A stretch of DNA of 64,000 nt. Origin: Escherichia coli. Lineage in GTDB: Bacteria; Pseudomonadota; Gammaproteobacteria; Enterobacterales; Enterobacteriaceae. The notes beneath the pieces were generated by a model. The model was not told the origin of the DNA. It made no database searches and saw nothing but the letters and a program-made list of their open reading frames with translations. The DNA lies in the NCBI RefSeq assembly GCF_045037415.1, contig NZ_CP173438.1; one strand, given 5' to 3'. Below, one piece after another: positions 3,018 to 38,839 of this stretch. A program made the position numbers and the translations under genes. The stretch's first letter is position 1, and each line of letters starts with the position of its first letter.

Positions 3018-3713
3018 ATGTCCCGGTCAGCGAAACCTCAAAATGGTCGCCGCCGCTTTCTGCGCGATGTCGTTCGCACAGCAGGCGGGCTGGCTGCCGT
3101 GGGTGTGGCGCTGGGGTTACAACAGCAAACCGCACGCGCATCTGGTGTGCGGTTGCGCCCGCCCGGAGCCATAAACGAGAACGCCTTTGCCAGTGCCTGT
3201 GTGCGTTGCGGTCAGTGTGTTCAGGCTTGCCCTTACGACACCTTAAAACTGGCGACGCTGGCCTCTGGTCTGTCGGCGGGCACGCCATATTTTGTCGCAC
3301 GGGATATTCCTTGCGAAATGTGTGAGGACATTCCGTGCGCCAAAGTGTGCCCGAGCGGTGCGCTGGATCGTGAGATCGAATCGATCGACGACGCGCGGAT
3401 GGGGCTGGCGGTACTGGTGGACCAGGAAAACTGTCTCAACTTTCAGGGGCTGCGCTGCGATGTTTGTTATCGCGAATGCCCGAAAATTGATGAGGCCATC
3501 ACCCTGGAGCTGGAGCGCAACACGCGAACCGGTAAGCACGCCCGCTTTCTGCCGACGGTTCACAGCGACGCCTGTACCGGCTGCGGTAAGTGCGAAAAAG
3601 TGTGCGTGCTGGAACAACCGGCAATCAAGGTGTTACCGCTGTCACTGGCGAAAGGGGAGTTAGGTCACCATTACCGCTTCGGCTGGCTGGAGGGGAACAA
3701 TGGCAAATCGTAA
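3018..3713 (+). CDS. napG: Ferredoxin-type protein NapG (quinol dehydrogenase periplasmic component)
   Basis: 231-aa ORF with Tat-like leader ([23 protein letters not shown]) and multiple CxxCxxCxxxCP motifs. Confidence 0.93.
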
Positions 3714-4563
3714 ACGTGACGCCGGGCGCGAGGCGCTGGAGAAAAAAGGCTGGTGGCGCAGTCACCGTTGGTTAGTGTTACGTCGCCTTTGTCAGTTCTT
3801 CGTGCTGGGGATGTTTTTGAGCGGTCCGTGGTTTGGTGTGTGGATCTTGCACGGCAACTACAGCAGTAGCCTGTTATTCGACACCGTTCCACTGACCGAT
3901 CCGCTGATGACACTGCAAAGTCTTGCCAGCGGTCATCTGCCTGCCACGGTAGCGCTGACTGGTGCGGTGATTATCACCGTGCTCTACGCCCTGGCAGGAA
4001 AGCGATTATTTTGCAGCTGGGTCTGCCCGCTGAACCCGATTACCGACTTAGCAAATTGGTTACGCAGACGATTTGACCTCAATCAGTCTGCGACGATCCC
4101 TCGCCACATTCGCTACGTGCTGTTGGTGATCATTCTGGTGGGATCGGCCTTAACTGGCACGCTCATCTGGGAATGGATCAACCCCGTTTCCCTGATGGGG
4201 CGTAGCCTGGTAATGGGCTTCGGCAGCGGCGCGCTGCTTATTCTCGCGCTGTTTTTATTTGATCTACTGGTCGTTGAACACGGCTGGTGCGGGCACATTT
4301 GTCCGGTTGGTGCACTGTATGGCGTGCTGGGTAGCAAAGGTGTGATTACCGTTGCGGCCACCGATCGGCAGAAATGTAACCGCTGTATGGATTGTTTTCA
4401 TGTTTGCCCGGAACCGCATGTGCTACGTGCCCCGGTGCTGGATGAACAAAGCCCGGTGCAGGTCACCAGCCGCGATTGCATGACGTGCGGTCGCTGCGTG
4501 GATGTCTGTTCTGAGGATGTATTTACAATAACTACACGATGGAGTTCGGGAGCGAAATCATGA
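3700..4563 (+). CDS. napH: Ferredoxin-type membrane protein NapH
   Basis: 287-aa ORF with hydrophobic segments and C-terminal 4Fe-4S Cys motifs; overlaps napG end and napB start. Confidence 0.93.
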
Positions 4564-5009
4564 AAAGCCATGACCTGAAGAAAGCGCTGTGTCAATGGAC
4601 GGCGATGCTGGCCCTGGTGGTAAGCGGCGCGGTTTGGGCGGCTAATGGCGTCGATTTTAGCCAGTCGCCGGAAGTATCCGGGACGCAGGAAGGGGCCATT
4701 CGGATGCCAAAAGAGCAGGATCGGATGCCGCTGAACTATGTGAATCAGCCGCCAATGATCCCGCATAGCGTTGAAGGTTATCAGGTAACGACCAATACCA
4801 ACCGCTGCTTGCAGTGCCACGGTGTCGAAAGTTATCGCACCACTGGCGCGCCGCGCATTAGTCCTACTCACTTTATGGACAGCGACGGCAAAGTGGGCGC
4901 GGAAGTGGCTCCGCGTCGTTATTTCTGTCTGCAATGTCACGTACCGCAGGCCGATACCGCGCCAATCGTGGGGAATACCTTTACCCCGTCAAAAGGTTAC
5001 GGGAAATAA
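4560..5009 (+). CDS. napB: Diheme cytochrome c NapB
   Basis: [27 protein letters not shown] signal peptide; two CxxCH heme motifs (CLQCH, CLQCH); start taken at internal ATG 4560 (ATGA overlap with napH). Confidence 0.92.
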   Translation: MKSHDLKKALCQWTAMLALVVSGAVWAANGVDFSQSPEVSGTQEGAIRMPKEQDRMPLNYVNQPPMIPHSVEGYQVTTNTNRCLQCHGVESYRTTGAPRISPTHFMDSDGKVGAEVAPRRYFCLQCHVPQADTAPIVGNTFTPSKGYGK

Positions 5010-32554: not shown

Positions 32555-34021
32555 TTAAATTTTGAGGGTGTTTAATAGCGCCTGATGCGCGCCGAATTGT
32601 GCGATTTGTTGCCAGGCTTGTTCGATGACCTGCACAAAATGCGGGTTATCTGGCAGATCATCACCGAAAATTTCACGCAGGGAAAGCAGGGCGGTTACGC
32701 GTTGTTCACTGCTGCTGCCTGCAACAAGTTCACGAATTTTATCGCTAAGCGGATCGCGAACATCAATGGCATTTCCGGCATCATCAACGCCGCTGACGTA
32801 ACGCATCCAGCCTGCAACGCCTAATGCCAGCAACGACCAGTCCGTTTCGCGCCCCAGATGTATGCGAATACCTGCCAACATGCGTTGCGGTAATTTCTGG
32901 CTGCCATCCATCGCGATTTGCCAGGTCTTATGTTTCAGTGCCGGATTAGCAAAACGTGCAATTAACTTATCCGCATATTGTGTTAAATCGACATCTTTAA
33001 TCCGCAGTGTCGGCGCTTGCTCATCCAGCATTAATGTTCTGGCGGCATGGCGAAATGCGCGATCCTGCATGCAATCACTGATATGGGCGAATCCTGAGAG
33101 GTAACCCAGATAAGCGAGAAAAGAGTGGCTGCCATTAAGCATCCGCAGTTTCATCTCTTCCCATGGCAGGACATCATTCACCATTTGTACACCTGCGACT
33201 TCCCAGGCAGGACGCCCAGCGACGAAGTTATCTTCAACCACCCACTGGATAAACGGTTCGCAGCTAATCGCGCAGGGATCATTCACCCCCAGATGCTGGC
33301 TTATTTCCGCCAGTGATTCGTTTGTTGCAGCCGGAACAATGCGGTCGACCATGGTTCCCGGAAAACTGACGTGTTCTTTTATCCACCCGGCGAGTTCTGG
33401 CGAACGTTTTTCTGCCATTCCCAGCACCGCGTTTTTCACCACATGGCCATTGTCGGGAATATTGTCGCAGGAGAGCACGGTAAACGGTGTATGGCCGCGC
33501 TCACGGCGGCGTTTCAGTGCTTCGACGAGAATACCTGGCGCGGAGTGAGGTTCTTCAGGGTTTTGTAGATCGTGAATAATACGCGGATTGCTGGTGTCGA
33601 GTGCACCGGTGGCCGGGTCAATACAATAGCCTTTTTCGGTAATTGTCAGGGAAACAATTGCCACCTGTGGCTCGCAAAATTTCTCAATAATTGCCGCTAA
33701 GGAATCCAGTTTTGCATTCAGACATTCGTGAACGGCACCGACAATTATCGCCTGATTGCCGTCCGCACCTTTCTCCAGCACGGTATATAAATGGTTCTGT
33801 GCGCGGAGCTGGCTCATCAGTTGATCGCCGCTGAACAAGCTGATTTCACAGATCCCCCAGTCGCCGCCCTGGGCATTCAGCACACGATCGGTCAGTAATG
33901 CCTGATGTGCGCGGTGAAAGGCTCCAAAGCCAAAATGAACGATACGTGATTGCAACTGCTGTCGATCGTAGCGTGGAGCGTGTACATGATGCGGGAGCGT
34001 AACGGAGGCGATTGTATTCAT
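32555..34021 (-). CDS. yeiQ: Mannitol dehydrogenase-family oxidoreductase YeiQ
   Basis: ORF track 491 aa; NAD-binding GFGAFHRAHQA motif; start set 3 codons in (488 aa). Confidence 0.9.
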   Translation of the reverse strand: MNTIASVTLPHHVHAPRYDRQQLQSRIVHFGFGAFHRAHQALLTDRVLNAQGGDWGICEISLFSGDQLMSQLRAQNHLYTVLEKGADGNQAIIVGAVHECLNAKLDSLAAIIEKFCEPQVAIVSLTITEKGYCIDPATGALDTSNPRIIHDLQNPEEPHSAPGILVEALKRRRERGHTPFTVLSCDNIPDNGHVVKNAVLGMAEKRSPELAGWIKEHVSFPGTMVDRIVPAATNESLAEISQHLGVNDPCAISCEPFIQWVVEDNFVAGRPAWEVAGVQMVNDVLPWEEMKLRMLNGSHSFLAYLGYLSGFAHISDCMQDRAFRHAARTLMLDEQAPTLRIKDVDLTQYADKLIARFANPALKHKTWQIAMDGSQKLPQRMLAGIRIHLGRETDWSLLALGVAGWMRYVSGVDDAGNAIDVRDPLSDKIRELVAGSSSEQRVTALLSLREIFGDDLPDNPHFVQVIEQAWQQIAQFGAHQALLNTLKI

Positions 34022-34243
34022 AGGAGTCACGTCTTAGTAACGATTAATTAACAATGACAGTGTAAAGTTATATGACAGCAATTGAAATTGGTCTGGATTG
34101 TTAATGCGATGAAGTGTGAGGGCGATCAATCAACGAGTGAAAATTGCGGGCGTAAGGTGTTCAGGAAGCGCAAAATAGAAGATTGGTATAATAAATTAAA
34201 AAAGGGACAGCCTGAGCTATCCCTTTTCTGCATGCGGCTGAAG

Positions 34244-34816
34244 TTAGTCAGCACGACCCATATAACGGCGTTCTTCGATATGGATACGAATTTTTTCGCC
34301 CGGGCTTAAGTATTCTGGTACCTGAATCACCAGACCAGTGCTCAATGTCGCCGGTTTGTTACGGGCGCTGGCAGATGCCCCTTTGATACCTGGTGCAGTT
34401 TCAACGATTTCCAGATCAACGGTCTGCGGCAGCTCAAGCGCCAGCAACTGACCGTCCCAGGTCAGCACCTGCATGTCCGGCATGCCGCCCTCAGGCATAA
34501 ACAGCAACTCTTCTTCAATCTGATCTTTGGTGAAGGTATACGGGGTATAGTCTTCTTTATCCATAAAGACATATTCGTTGCCATCGACATAGGAGAAGTC
34601 AACGTAACGGCGGGTCAGCGTCACGGTGTCAACGATATCATCACCTTTGAAACGCTCTTCTACTTTCAGCCCGGTACGGACATCAGAAAAACGCATTTTG
34701 TACAGCGTAGCGGCACCGCGGGCAGTGGGCGACTGAATATCAATGTCCTTAACCAGCAGCAGTTTGCCGTTGTAATTCAGTACCATACCTTTTTTAATTT
34801 CGTTCGCTCTTGGCAT
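34244..34816 (-). CDS. efpL: Elongation factor P-like protein EfpL (YeiP)
   Basis: [37 protein letters not shown]...; 190 aa from internal ATG of 275-aa ORF. Confidence 0.92.
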
Positions 34817-34970
34817 CGAAAAATTCCTGTAGTCAAAAATGTCAAAAATATCGCGACAAAGTACTCGCGACGGGCCTTTCGGGCAAGTGGTATTCGCACT
34901 TTTGCTGGTGCAAAAAAGGTGGTACTGTGCGCGCTCATCAATCCGGTGGTTAACCTTAAGAGAACAACGT

Positions 34971-35225
34971 ATGGAATGCCGTCCGGGTTGCGGGGCGTGT
35001 TGCACTGCCCCTTCAATTTCCAGCCCTATTCCCGGTATGCCAGATGGCAAGCCCGCCAATACTCCCTGCATTCAGCTTGATGAACAGCAACGCTGTAAAA
35101 TTTTCACCTCGCCACTGCGACCGAAAGTCTGTGCAGGCTTACAAGCCAGCGCTGAAATGTGCGGTAACTCGCGTCAGCAGGCCATGATCTGGCTTATCGA
35201 TCTGGAAATGTTGACCGCGCCTTAA
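34971..35225 (+). CDS. yeiW: UPF0153 cysteine-cluster protein YeiW
   Basis: [45 protein letters not shown]... 84 aa from internal ATG. Confidence 0.85.
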
Positions 35226-36403
35226 ACATCTTTAATTCGCAGTAAGCAAAACAGAGTGGCGATAATCATCACCATCGCAAACCAGAACACAGCGTGATAA
35301 TTCCAGATCTCGGCGACGATGCCCGCCACTGATCCTGCGATGATCCAGCCCACGCGCGAAGTGTTGGTATAGAGCGTGGTGGCTGAACCTGCCTGACCGG
35401 GCATCAAATCCTGAAAATAGAGCATCCCGATGCCGCCAAGAATGCCAATAAAAATAGCATTTAGCAGCTGCAAGCCCAACAGAATGACAGGTGAATGCGC
35501 CATCAGCATTCCTGCGTAAAAACAGACGCCACCCACGGCAGCAACGCGCATTAAGAAGCGCTTACCCAGACGTTTGGCAAAATATCCGGCGATCAACATG
35601 GTCGGGATTTCCAGCCCGGCGGCGGTCCCCATCATCACACCGGCCAGTTTCTCGGGAAGATGCAGTTCGTTGATAATAAATAGCGGCATGTTGATGATGT
35701 ACAGGCTGTTCGAGCCCCACATCAATGTACAAATGACAAACAGCAGCAACGTATCGCGACGGTTACGGCGCGGCGCTTCAACCGTGCCGGTCGCCAGCGG
35801 AAGCTCTTTTTGCATCGACGGCAAAAACAGCCACACCATCACGCCGCAAACAATAAACGCTACCGCTGCGCTCAGATACATTACCGTAAAGCTGAAACCC
35901 ATCGCTAAGGCATAAGCCAGCGGTGGGCCAATGACCCATGCCAGTGAAACCTGAGCGCGTAAAAAAGAGCTGAACATCACCGCCTCACGTCCGGTTTTGT
36001 CAGCATGTTCACGGGCAAGGGCAAACATTTGCGGGTTAGCGGTCGAGCCAAAGCTGCTAAGAAAGACGCCAACGAATAGCAAAACAAAGTAGTTGCGATT
36101 CCAGGCAAAAAGGGTGCAGGCCAGCACGCCTAACAGGCAGCAAAAGACAATCAGCGATTTGCGATCGCCGCGCTTATCAGAGCGCCCGGCGAGAAACTGA
36201 CTCACCAGAATCCCAATGACAGCGCTGCCGGTAAAGAAGAATCCCACCATCGCCGGACGGGCATGTACTTCATCAGTAAGAAAAATACTGAGTGTCGGGG
36301 TTTGCAGAGCGCCCGCAATACCGGTGAGAAAGGCAACGATTAAAAACGCCGTCGAGGTCAGGTCAAACGATTTCGCGCTGGTGACTGTGGGGGAGTTATG
36401 CAT
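35222..36403 (-). CDS. setB: Sugar efflux transporter SetB (MFS)
   Basis: 393-aa 12-[33 protein letters not shown]... Confidence 0.93.
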
Positions 36404-36639
36404 GCTGGTCGATCACTGGAAGAGGAAGACGCGGAGTTTACGCTGCTTGTCAGAAAATAAACAGACAGCGAAATCAAAAGCGCCACGAATAATCAAAATG
36501 CCATTTCACTGTTGCTGATTGGCTGCTGACACTGCTGAAATGAAATTGCTGATAACGGATTTTCCCATCAGCAATTAGGAAAAATGACAAAAAATTGTGC
36601 AGCACATCAAACTTTTGCTCATAACTTTACGGCTTTCCT

Positions 36640-36756
36640 TGCGCGCTGAAACAGAAGTATTATGCTTCCTTGAAACGTTTCAGCGCGATCTTGTCTTTAA
36701 CCCTAAGCCAGGTTGGCGCTTTTTTTCTCATAGAAGCTGAATCGTTTCAATTCAGC
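36640..36756. promoter_or_regulatory. fruBKA promoter region with Cra (FruR) operator palindromes
   Basis: Cra-box-like palindromes tgaaacgtttca (36671-36682) and gctgaatcgtttcaattcagc (36736-36756), plus gcgctgaaac (36641-36650), just upstream of fruB ATG. Confidence 0.75.
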
Positions 36757-36770
36757 AAGAGAGGAGAACT

Positions 36771-37901
36771 ATGTTCCAGTTATCTGTACAGGACATCCAT
36801 CCGGGCGAAAAGGCCGGAGACAAAGAAGAGGCGATTCGCCAGGTCGCTGCGGCGCTGGTGCAGGCCGGTAATGTAGCTGAAGGCTACGTCAATGGCATGC
36901 TGGCGCGCGAACAGCAAACCTCAACGTTCCTCGGCAATGGTATTGCTATTCCACACGGCACTACCGACACCCGCGATCAGGTGCTGAAAACCGGCGTTCA
37001 GGTATTTCAGTTCCCGGAAGGCGTCACCTGGGGGGACGGCCAGGTAGCGTACGTGGCGATCGGTATTGCTGCCAGCTCGGATGAACATCTGGGCCTGCTA
37101 CGCCAGCTGACCCACGTACTGAGCGATGATTCCGTTGCTGAACAACTGAAGTCAGCAACAACAGCAGAAGAACTTCGCGCATTGCTGATGGGCGAAAAGC
37201 AGAGTGAGCAGCTGAAGCTCGACAACGAAATGCTGACGCTGGATATCGTCGCCAGCGATCTGCTGACTCTTCAGGCGCTGAACGCTGCGCGTCTGAAAGA
37301 AGCGGGGGCAGTTGACGCCACTTTCGTCACCAAAGCCATCAATGAACAACCGCTGAACCTCGGACAGGGTATCTGGCTGAGCGATAGCGCCGAAGGCAAT
37401 CTGCGTAGCGCGATTGCGGTAAGCCGTGCGGCAAATGCTTTTGATGTGGACGGCGAAACGGCAGCCATGCTGGTGAGTGTGGCAATGAATGACGATCAGC
37501 CCATCGCGGTTCTTAAGCGTCTCGCTGATTTGTTGCTCGATAATAAAGCTGACCGCTTGCTGAAAGCGGATGCGGCAACGTTGCTGGCGCTGCTGACCAG
37601 CGATGATGCGCCGACCGACGACGTGTTAAGCGCGGAGTTTGTGGTGCGCAATGAACACGGCCTGCATGCTCGTCCAGGTACCATGCTGGTCAATACCATT
37701 AAACAATTTAACAGTGATATTACCGTGACAAACCTTGATGGCACCGGCAAACCGGCAAACGGACGTAGTCTGATGAAAGTTGTGGCACTTGGCGTTAAGA
37801 AAGGTCATCGCCTACGCTTTACCGCCCAGGGTGCAGATGCTGAACAGGCGCTGAAAGCCATTGGCGACGCTATCGCTGCTGGTCTTGGGGAGGGCGCATA
37901 A
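36771..37901 (+). CDS. fruB: Fructose PTS diphosphoryl transfer protein FruB (EIIA-FPr)
   Basis: 376-aa ORF; EIIA domain (GIAIPHG) and C-terminal HPr-like domain (GLHARPG). Confidence 0.95.
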
Positions 37902-38839
37902 TGAGCAGACGTGTTGCTACGATCACCCTTAATCCGGCTTATGACCTTGTTGGTTTCTGCCCGGAAATTGAACGCGGCGAAGTGAACCTGGTGAAAACCA
38001 CCGGTCTGCATGCGGCGGGTAAAGGCATCAACGTGGCCAAAGTATTAAAAGACCTGGGAATTGATGTCACCGTTGGCGGCTTCCTGGGTAAAGACAATCA
38101 GGATGGTTTTCAGCAACTGTTCAGCGAGCTGGGCATTGCCAACCGTTTCCAGGTTGTACAGGGGCGCACCCGAATTAACGTTAAGCTGACGGAAAAAGAC
38201 GGCGAAGTGACCGACTTCAACTTCTCGGGTTTTGAAGTTACCCCCGCCGACTGGGAACGCTTTGTGACTGATTCTCTGAGCTGGCTCGGTCAGTTCGATA
38301 TGGTCTGTGTCAGCGGAAGCTTACCGTCAGGCGTCAGCCCGGAAGCGTTCACCGACTGGATGACTCGCCTGCGTAGTCAGTGTCCTTGCATTATCTTTGA
38401 TAGTAGCCGTGAAGCGTTAGTAGCAGGTTTGAAAGCGGCACCGTGGCTGGTGAAACCTAACCGCCGCGAGCTGGAAATCTGGGCAGGCCGTAAACTGCCT
38501 GAAATGAAAGATGTGATTGAAGCTGCACATGCGCTACGTGAACAAGGTATTGCGCATGTTGTTATTTCACTGGGTGCCGAAGGCGCGCTTTGGGTTAATG
38601 CCTCCGGCGAATGGATCGCCAAACCACCGTCAGTCGATGTCGTAAGCACCGTTGGCGCAGGGGATTCTATGGTTGGTGGCCTGATTTATGGCTTGCTGAT
38701 GCGTGAATCCAGTGAACACACACTGCGTCTGGCGACAGCTGTTGCAGCCCTGGCGGTAAGTCAAAGCAATGTGGGTATTACCGATCGTCCGCAGTTGGCC
38801 GCAATGATGGCGCGCGTCGACTTACAACCTTTTAACTGA
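37901..38839 (+). CDS. fruK: 1-phosphofructokinase FruK
   Basis: 312-aa ORF; PfkB family; GAGDSMVGG motif. Confidence 0.95.
   Translation: MSRRVATITLNPAYDLVGFCPEIERGEVNLVKTTGLHAAGKGINVAKVLKDLGIDVTVGGFLGKDNQDGFQQLFSELGIANRFQVVQGRTRINVKLTEKDGEVTDFNFSGFEVTPADWERFVTDSLSWLGQFDMVCVSGSLPSGVSPEAFTDWMTRLRSQCPCIIFDSSREALVAGLKAAPWLVKPNRRELEIWAGRKLPEMKDVIEAAHALREQGIAHVVISLGAEGALWVNASGEWIAKPPSVDVVSTVGAGDSMVGGLIYGLLMRESSEHTLRLATAVAALAVSQSNVGITDRPQLAAMMARVDLQPFN

Follow-up and report, generated by a model that had tools for sequence, protein, structure and literature searches.

Two convergent genes, yeiW and setB, meet tail to tail in the window (by which we mean the whole stretch of 64,000 nucleotides of Escherichia coli DNA that was analysed), and a third gene, yeiP/efpL, lies on the other side of yeiW. 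The locus is composed of the following features:

34244-34816, minus strand: yeiP/efpL coding sequence (TIGR02178), on the strand of setB and downstream of it across the antisense yeiW
34817-34970, no strand: divergent yeiP-yeiW intergenic region with the vanillin-inducible yeiW promoter fragment (PMC5291986 supplement, alignment of 26 genomes)
34971-35225, plus strand: yeiW coding sequence, a YkgJ/CxxCxxCC cysteine-cluster protein of 84 aa (PF03692, 563 relatives confirmed by tblastn)
35222-35225, no strand: shared tetramer TTAA (general form YTAR) holding both stop codons, read from the sequence
35222-36403, minus strand: setB coding sequence, an MFS sugar efflux transporter of 393 aa (NF011587)

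SetB scored 874 bits against the NCBIfam equivalog NF011587 (cut-off 693) and covered the model from 1 to 393 of 393, and YeiP/EfpL scored 340.7 bits against TIGR02178 (cut-off 264). YeiW had 33.2 bits against PF03692 (CxxCxxCC, cut-off 23) and no match among the NCBIfam models searched. Judging from these profile matches, we consider the identities of all three genes secure.

The yeiW gene starts at the annotated ATG at 34971, as opposed to a longer ORF of 128 aa starting from 34839, and ends with TAA at 35223-35225. On the minus strand, setB runs from 36403 to 35222 and its TAA is read from 35224 to 35222 (TTA on the plus strand). The TTAA at 35222-35225 is common to both genes, which gives a 4-nt overlap with zero intergenic bases; the plus-strand sequence at about 35213-35240 is ACC GCG CCT TAA ACA TCT TTA ATT CGC. 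The RefSeq annotation contains the identical overlap (yeiW at 3272-3526, plus, and setB at 3523-4704, minus, in locus L001), and it is annotated in every reference genome. The first-pass annotation had placed the two stops at 35223-35225 and 35222-35224 with a TTAA overlap, and both the ORFs and RefSeq agree with this exactly. For comparison with published data, window positions were obtained as 2300266 minus the MG1655 coordinate, which is consistent with the yeiW start at MG1655 2265295. The locus was found in 5413 of 5426 complete E. coli genomes. A megablast with the 62-nt junction matched 1118 E. coli genomes, a number limited by the word size and without bearing on variation of the tetramer.

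Overlaps of this kind have been described before. Lillo and Krakauer (2007, PMC2174442) reported that the lengths of convergent overlaps jump at 4, the modal length, which results from CTAA, TTAA, CTAG and TTAG. Their set contains 1890 convergent overlaps across 58 genomes, 1218 of them at least 5 nt long. As the codon sequences make an overlap of two stop codons by 1-3 nt impossible, the whole remainder below 5 nt is of the 4-nt type, and from their tables we computed that this type makes up about 36 % of the convergent overlaps in the 58 genomes. In E. coli they found 58 convergent overlaps and a predicted rho-independent terminator for 23 of the 116 genes involved (20 %), while Huvet and Stumpf (PMC4161906) counted 75 convergent overlapping pairs in this species. 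The yeiW-setB pair has exactly this geometry: the genes are two genuine convergent protein genes, and both opposite-strand stops lie inside one YTAR tetramer. Neither has a clear rho-independent terminator, which is also true of most E. coli genes in such overlaps. The pair is an already known, and the commonest, kind of tail-to-tail overlap, and nothing essential sets it apart from the published class (PMC2174442); what is added here is that 42 of 52 species-level genomes retain its geometry, between them using all four tetramers. No p-value can be given for one TTAA, as the enrichment is known for the class. About nine convergent pairs are present within the 64-kb window, among them yejG (stop TAA at 22370-22372) and yejF (stop read 22378-22376), which are 3 nt apart and also appear on the ExcludonFinder excludon list (PMC12288877).

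The conservation of the overlap was followed across relatives. Searches with tblastn confirmed 563 loci with YeiW relatives on genome contigs, and the comparative set consisted of 80 such loci, one genome per species (L002-L081). In 52 of these 80 species-level loci setB is the convergent neighbour of yeiW, and 42 of the 52 have an overlap of exactly 4 nt, formed by TTAA (24 loci), CTAA (15), CTAG (2) or TTAG (1). A second tally of the tetramers gave 41 loci, to which L006 was added from the locus survey to reach 42. The 4-nt overlaps of the 52-locus set span Escherichia, Citrobacter, Kluyvera, Kosakonia, Enterobacter, Raoultella, Pluralibacter, Franconibacter, Buttiauxella, Cedecea and Rahnella. 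In the aligned loci the C-termini are near-universal, YeiW ending with TAP and SetB with RIKD followed by Val or Ile. The TAP end of YeiW persists also at loci without an adjoining setB, such as those labelled Bordetella and Parapusillimonas. The tetramer fixes just two synonymous positions, those of the Pro codon CCY in YeiW and of the Val/Ile codon GTY/ATY in SetB. Third-codon positions adjoining the tetramer vary freely in the setB-adjacent loci. Apart from the two protein C-termini, the ungapped alignment showed nothing under constraint, for instance no conserved RNA structure.

The remaining ten of the 52 setB-adjacent genomes have a spacer or a longer overlap, so a different geometry is tolerated. 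L010, L033, L045, L058, L063 and L069 have spacers of 5-32 nt between the stops of yeiW and setB; one of these, in Citrobacter sp. MGH106, is 19 nt long and contains a hairpin. Longer overlaps are present in L040 and L043. In Entomohabitans teleogrylli (L040, 3228-3255) yeiW ends with TGA, SetB is 8 codons longer and the overlap measures 28 nt; because yeiW uses TGA here, the antisense triplet has ceased to be a stop, which lengthens SetB. Two Rahnella species (L066 and L067, 3252-3293) have an unrelated 12-residue SetB tail, which still ends on the YTAA of yeiW; the tetramer serves as a backstop for the antisense frame. In many Enterobacterales setB is missing beside yeiW-yeiP.

The other neighbour, yeiP/efpL, lies within 3 kb of yeiW in 68 of the 80 loci, and in most of these it is the immediate divergent neighbour. 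The 12 loci without it nearby are labelled as other lineages (e.g. Bordetella, Herbaspirillum, Undibacterium and Comamonas) or as unclassified MAGs. This adjacency could be inherited synteny or could reflect a functional link of the cysteine-cluster protein with the EF-P paralogue. We did not accept it as a sign of such a link, as synteny may suffice and none of the 12 loci from other lineages or MAGs has the arrangement.

The intergenic region between these two genes (34817-34970) carries the inducible promoter of yeiW. Vanillin raised yeiW 9-fold in RNA-seq and 4.3-fold in a promoter fusion (PMC5291986), and according to the supplement of that study the fusion carries essentially the 154-nt yeiP-yeiW intergenic region. 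The study gives the seven most strongly up-regulated genes only, yeiW among them, and setB is not mentioned (PMC5291986). The alignment of 26 genomes revealed a strongly conserved block in the region, AAAATATCGCG..AAA..TACTCGCG....TTCAGGCAAG. At 34845-34900, AAAATATCGCGnnAAAnTACTCGCG followed by TTCAGGCAAG is nearly invariant in the 26 enterobacterial genomes, and this part contains two CGCG-centred half-sites (TCGCGA...TCGCGA in E. coli), which also form a minus-strand hairpin at 34871-34850. The block at 34845-34900 is probably the promoter of yeiP/efpL and/or an operator common to the divergent pair.

Regarding the ends of the transcripts, we searched for terminators and stem-loops around the junction and inside yeiW, and the following elements come into consideration:

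34992-35016, plus strand: hairpin GGGGCGTGTTGCACTGCCCC (34992-35011) followed by TTCAATTT, within the yeiW ORF (consensus scan and published Term-seq ends)
35217-35240, no strand: weak AT-rich hairpin across the junction, GCGccTTAAAcatcTTTAAttCGC (minimum-free-energy folds of both strands)
35226-35363, plus strand: untranslated RNA past the yeiW stop, antisense to the 3′ end of setB (base composition)
35257-35278, minus strand: weak hairpin with T-rich tail, CACTCTGTTT, inside the last setB codons, with 8 pairs of which 3 are GC (consensus scan)

Between the yeiW stop and 36800 the consensus scan detected nothing terminator-like on the plus strand, and on the minus strand near the junction it recovered only weak hairpins, at 35278-35257 and 34871-34850. 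The first of these cannot end a complete setB mRNA, as it sits upstream of the setB stop. For yeiP, a terminator-like site was recognised at 34229-34198 on the minus strand. The Rfam scan of 33000-38000 gave no match at E≤1. The first-pass annotation was right that no intergenic terminator is present, as neither scan returned anything convincing near the junction. The hairpin across the junction had z-scores of -1.66 in a 181-nt context and -2.26 in a 201-nt context, and its arms are altered in other genera, e.g. TTAAACGTCCTTGAT. The junction lacks a G+C-rich stem-loop with A- and U-tracts, as would characterise a bidirectional intrinsic terminator. On the plus strand, C exceeds G over about 140 nt past the yeiW stop (C/G ratio 1.3-1.6), and this C-rich RNA (35226-35363) is a plausible Rho loading region, as far as base composition can suggest. 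On the minus strand, the RNA that follows the setB stop remains G-rich as far as about +200.

The Term-seq tables of Adams et al. (2021) contain no 3′ end at the junction, with the limited sensitivity of such data, and the nearest end is at about 35015 inside yeiW. They contain no 3′ ends for full-length setB or yeiW either, but the terminator of yeiP is also absent from them, so this silence is weak. Since the stops overlap and no terminator lies between the genes, any mRNA with the full yeiW or setB ORF is antisense to the end of the partner. The claim of the first-pass annotation that the 3′ ends of the two transcripts must overlap holds in this form, i.e. for any mRNA carrying a complete ORF. 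As neither gene has its own terminator, the complete mRNAs run into the antisense strand of the partner and form a short 3′-3′ transcript overlap. The situation resembles the convergent genes studied by Wang et al. (2022, bioRxiv 10.1101/2022.10.23.513370) in its head-on traffic within a very short space. However, the sites of Wang et al. have a defined intergenic stem-loop, whereas yeiW and setB leave no bases between them and lack a convincing stem-loop or U-tract.

Adams et al. (2021) reported Term-seq ends at MG1655 2265251/2265250 (window about 35015/35016), 44 nt into yeiW, in two condition entries with a Rho score of 1.36 ('No') and an intrinsic terminator score of 6.97. The end directly follows the hairpin at 34992-35011, the only terminator-like site of the plus strand in the scan. 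Some yeiW transcripts therefore stop about 200 nt short of the overlap with setB. The stem is largely dictated by the Gly-Ala...Ala-Pro codons of the CGACCTAP cysteine-cluster motif, and the T-tract behind it is missing outside K-12-like E. coli. The minimum-free-energy fold of the 95-nt context does not contain the hairpin (z -0.97). We rejected the element as a conserved attenuator because the stem is forced by codons, the T-tract is not conserved and the 95-nt fold lacks the hairpin. We read it as a by-product, which yet removes some yeiW transcripts before they reach setB. A putative extended -10 element, TGGTACTGT, is located at 34920-34928; together with this 3′ end it would define an RNA about 80 nt long.

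The concept of the convergent excludon was reportedly put forward by Sesto and colleagues in 2013. Antisense interference between yeiW and setB, as suggested in the first-pass annotation, is possible. The overlap of the setB and yeiW transcripts is already known from a 2025 paper, in which ExcludonFinder listed the pair as one of 165 convergent excludons that at least 50 % of 58 MG1655 transcriptomes contain (NAR 2025, PMC12288877). As in the other pairs of that list, the genes are opposite-strand neighbours with transcripts overlapping at their 3′ ends (PMC12288877). The tool requires overlapping coverage-defined transcript boundaries flanking each CDS (PMC12288877), and its call for setB-yeiW is near-automatic, because the CDSs themselves overlap. 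Characterised excludons have inverse expression or RNase III processing, whereas setB-yeiW is known only from the listing of its overlap. The pair resembles mscL-arfA, a convergent E. coli pair likewise on the excludon list, in which a small-protein gene and a membrane-protein gene have a 3′ antisense overlap (PMC10070815); an antisense regulatory effect is reported to have been demonstrated for mscL-arfA, unlike for setB-yeiW. Neither setB nor yeiW (b2170, b4502) is among the entries listed in the p19 dsRNA-capture supplements, where rtn and yejF are present; expression of the pair is low. The published direct RNA-seq coverage about the locus is likewise low (about 26-27 reads per 800 nt). 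A literature search found no evidence for antisense interference between yeiW and setB and no inverse-expression data for the pair. Together, the low expression, the lack of captured dsRNA, the natural spacers and the lack of extra constraint lean against a dedicated regulatory role.

In our opinion, the 4-nt tail-to-tail overlap is quite probably a frozen and essentially neutral state of two real genes, whose mRNAs both lack a terminator and end diffusely within the partner. Opposite-strand TAA and TAG stops fit into YTAR, and convergent genes could thus be packed down to -4 nt with neither protein altered. All that this would require is that the last sense codon of either gene ends in a pyrimidine, as do CCY (Pro) in yeiW and GTY/ATY (Val/Ile) in setB. 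Once reached, this state would persist, since purifying selection acts on both C-termini and a mutation in the tetramer would in most cases make one of the proteins longer. The long conservation of the overlap would follow from the two conserved protein C-termini and from a tetramer that costs nothing to keep. Transcription would end diffusely, by Rho acting on the untranslated C-rich RNA past the yeiW stop together with RNA decay or polymerase collisions, and we infer that regulatory cross-talk between the two genes would be negligible in ordinary conditions. With the C-termini conserved, just two synonymous positions fixed, the neighbouring sites free and ten variant genomes, the conservation of the overlap looks like a cost-free frozen state and not a selected RNA element. 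Three considerations speak against neutrality: the retention across more than 10 genera might mean selection for coupled expression, the pair is called an excludon by ExcludonFinder in at least half of the 58 transcriptomes, and yeiW is inducible, so that one partner is strongly transcribed in some conditions.

These considerations lead to the alternative of a functional convergent excludon, in which transcription of one gene represses the other by polymerase collision and/or RNase III cleavage of the 3′-3′ duplex, for instance when stress-induced yeiW lowers SetB efflux. The presence of the pair in the MG1655 excludome (PMC12288877), the strong inducibility of yeiW, the arrangement kept in 42 of 52 genomes and the lack of an insulating terminator for either gene are all consistent with it, and head-on RNAP collisions are a documented mechanism of termination and interference at convergent E. 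coli genes. We nevertheless consider such a role unlikely. The ExcludonFinder call is close to automatic for overlapping CDSs, the pair is absent among the p19 dsRNA entries listed and RNA coverage at the locus is low. The 3′ end 44 nt into yeiW means that at least some transcripts stop before the overlap. Moreover, the protein C-termini fully explain the conservation while the nearby synonymous sites vary freely, and natural relatives carry spacers of 5-32 nt, including the inserted hairpin of Citrobacter sp. MGH106. A more elaborate version would be a conditional switch: the intrinsic hairpin 44 nt into yeiW would normally stop most transcription, and under aldehyde or oxidative stress read-through would invade setB head-on and lower SetB efflux, the zero spacer being kept to guarantee the cross-talk. 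We regard this switch as very unlikely.

That the junction hairpin at 35217-35240 serves as a cryptic bidirectional terminator, ending both transcripts a few bases past their stops, has in our view only a slight chance of being true. It does appear in the minimum-free-energy fold of both strands, and stem-loops position collisions at convergent gene boundaries. However, the stem consists mainly of A-U pairs and is interrupted by an internal loop, a U-tract is present on neither strand, the z-scores are weak (about -1.7 and -2.3) and the consensus scan did not pick it up; its arms are unconserved in other genera and no Term-seq 3′ end was reported at the site. We rejected it as a terminator for these properties. 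It is extremely improbable that setB transcription crosses the antisense yeiW into yeiP/efpL as a noncontiguous operon, co-expressing both and silencing yeiW. The gene order setB(-) yeiW(+) yeiP(-) would fit, the G-rich RNA for about 200 nt past the setB stop is poor for Rho loading and the sole minus-strand hairpin before yeiP (34871-34850) is weak. But ExcludonFinder gives just three noncontiguous operons in MG1655 and setB-yeiP is not among them (PMC12288877), the strongly conserved block upstream of yeiP resembles a promoter of its own, and many Enterobacterales do not have setB beside yeiW-yeiP at all. The suspicion that the overlap is an artefact of annotation, with a wrong ORF end or an unreal yeiW, comes from the small size of yeiW (84 aa), which has no known function and no NCBIfam model. 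It is effectively refuted and we give it next to no weight, as the YeiW protein is conserved in 563 loci with the same start and TAP end, including loci labelled Bordetella, Undibacterium, Comamonas and further non-enterobacterial genera, and scores above the Pfam cut-off, while SetB aligns end to end with NF011587.

Taken as a frozen by-product of two conserved C-termini, the overlap is real, already known and matters little, being a clean and well-conserved textbook case of the commonest convergent overlap. It can be used as a natural test case for interference in convergent pairs with zero spacer, with spacer variants available in Klebsiella, namely K. oxytoca and K. indica, and in one Citrobacter. 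It also illustrates how a gene is lengthened when the stop of its partner changes from TAA to TGA.

Several minor observations concern the surroundings of the pair. A peak of the sigma-28 (FliA) holoenzyme inside setB presumably falls at about 35835 of the window, after an approximate shift from older MG1655 coordinates. This binding peak, as well as a sigma-32 peak in the fruB-setB spacer, was obtained by genomic SELEX (PMC5493296). The 5′ UTR of fruB contains a strong published 'orphan' Term-seq 3′ end at MG1655 2263539, located after GCCAGGTTGGCGCTTTTTTT (window 36707-36727, plus strand) and 44 nt upstream of the fruB ATG (36771). With an intrinsic terminator score of 9.61 and a Rho score of 0.26, it has no regulatory element entered for it in the Term-seq table; for the fructose PTS operon, it could represent an attenuator in the leader or a short RNA. 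Elsewhere in the window, an autotransporter beta-barrel gene at about 12920-13845 (within about 2 nt), located beside narP and tRNA-Pro, is a pseudogene, frameshifted and truncated, according to the RefSeq annotation of a near-identical strain.
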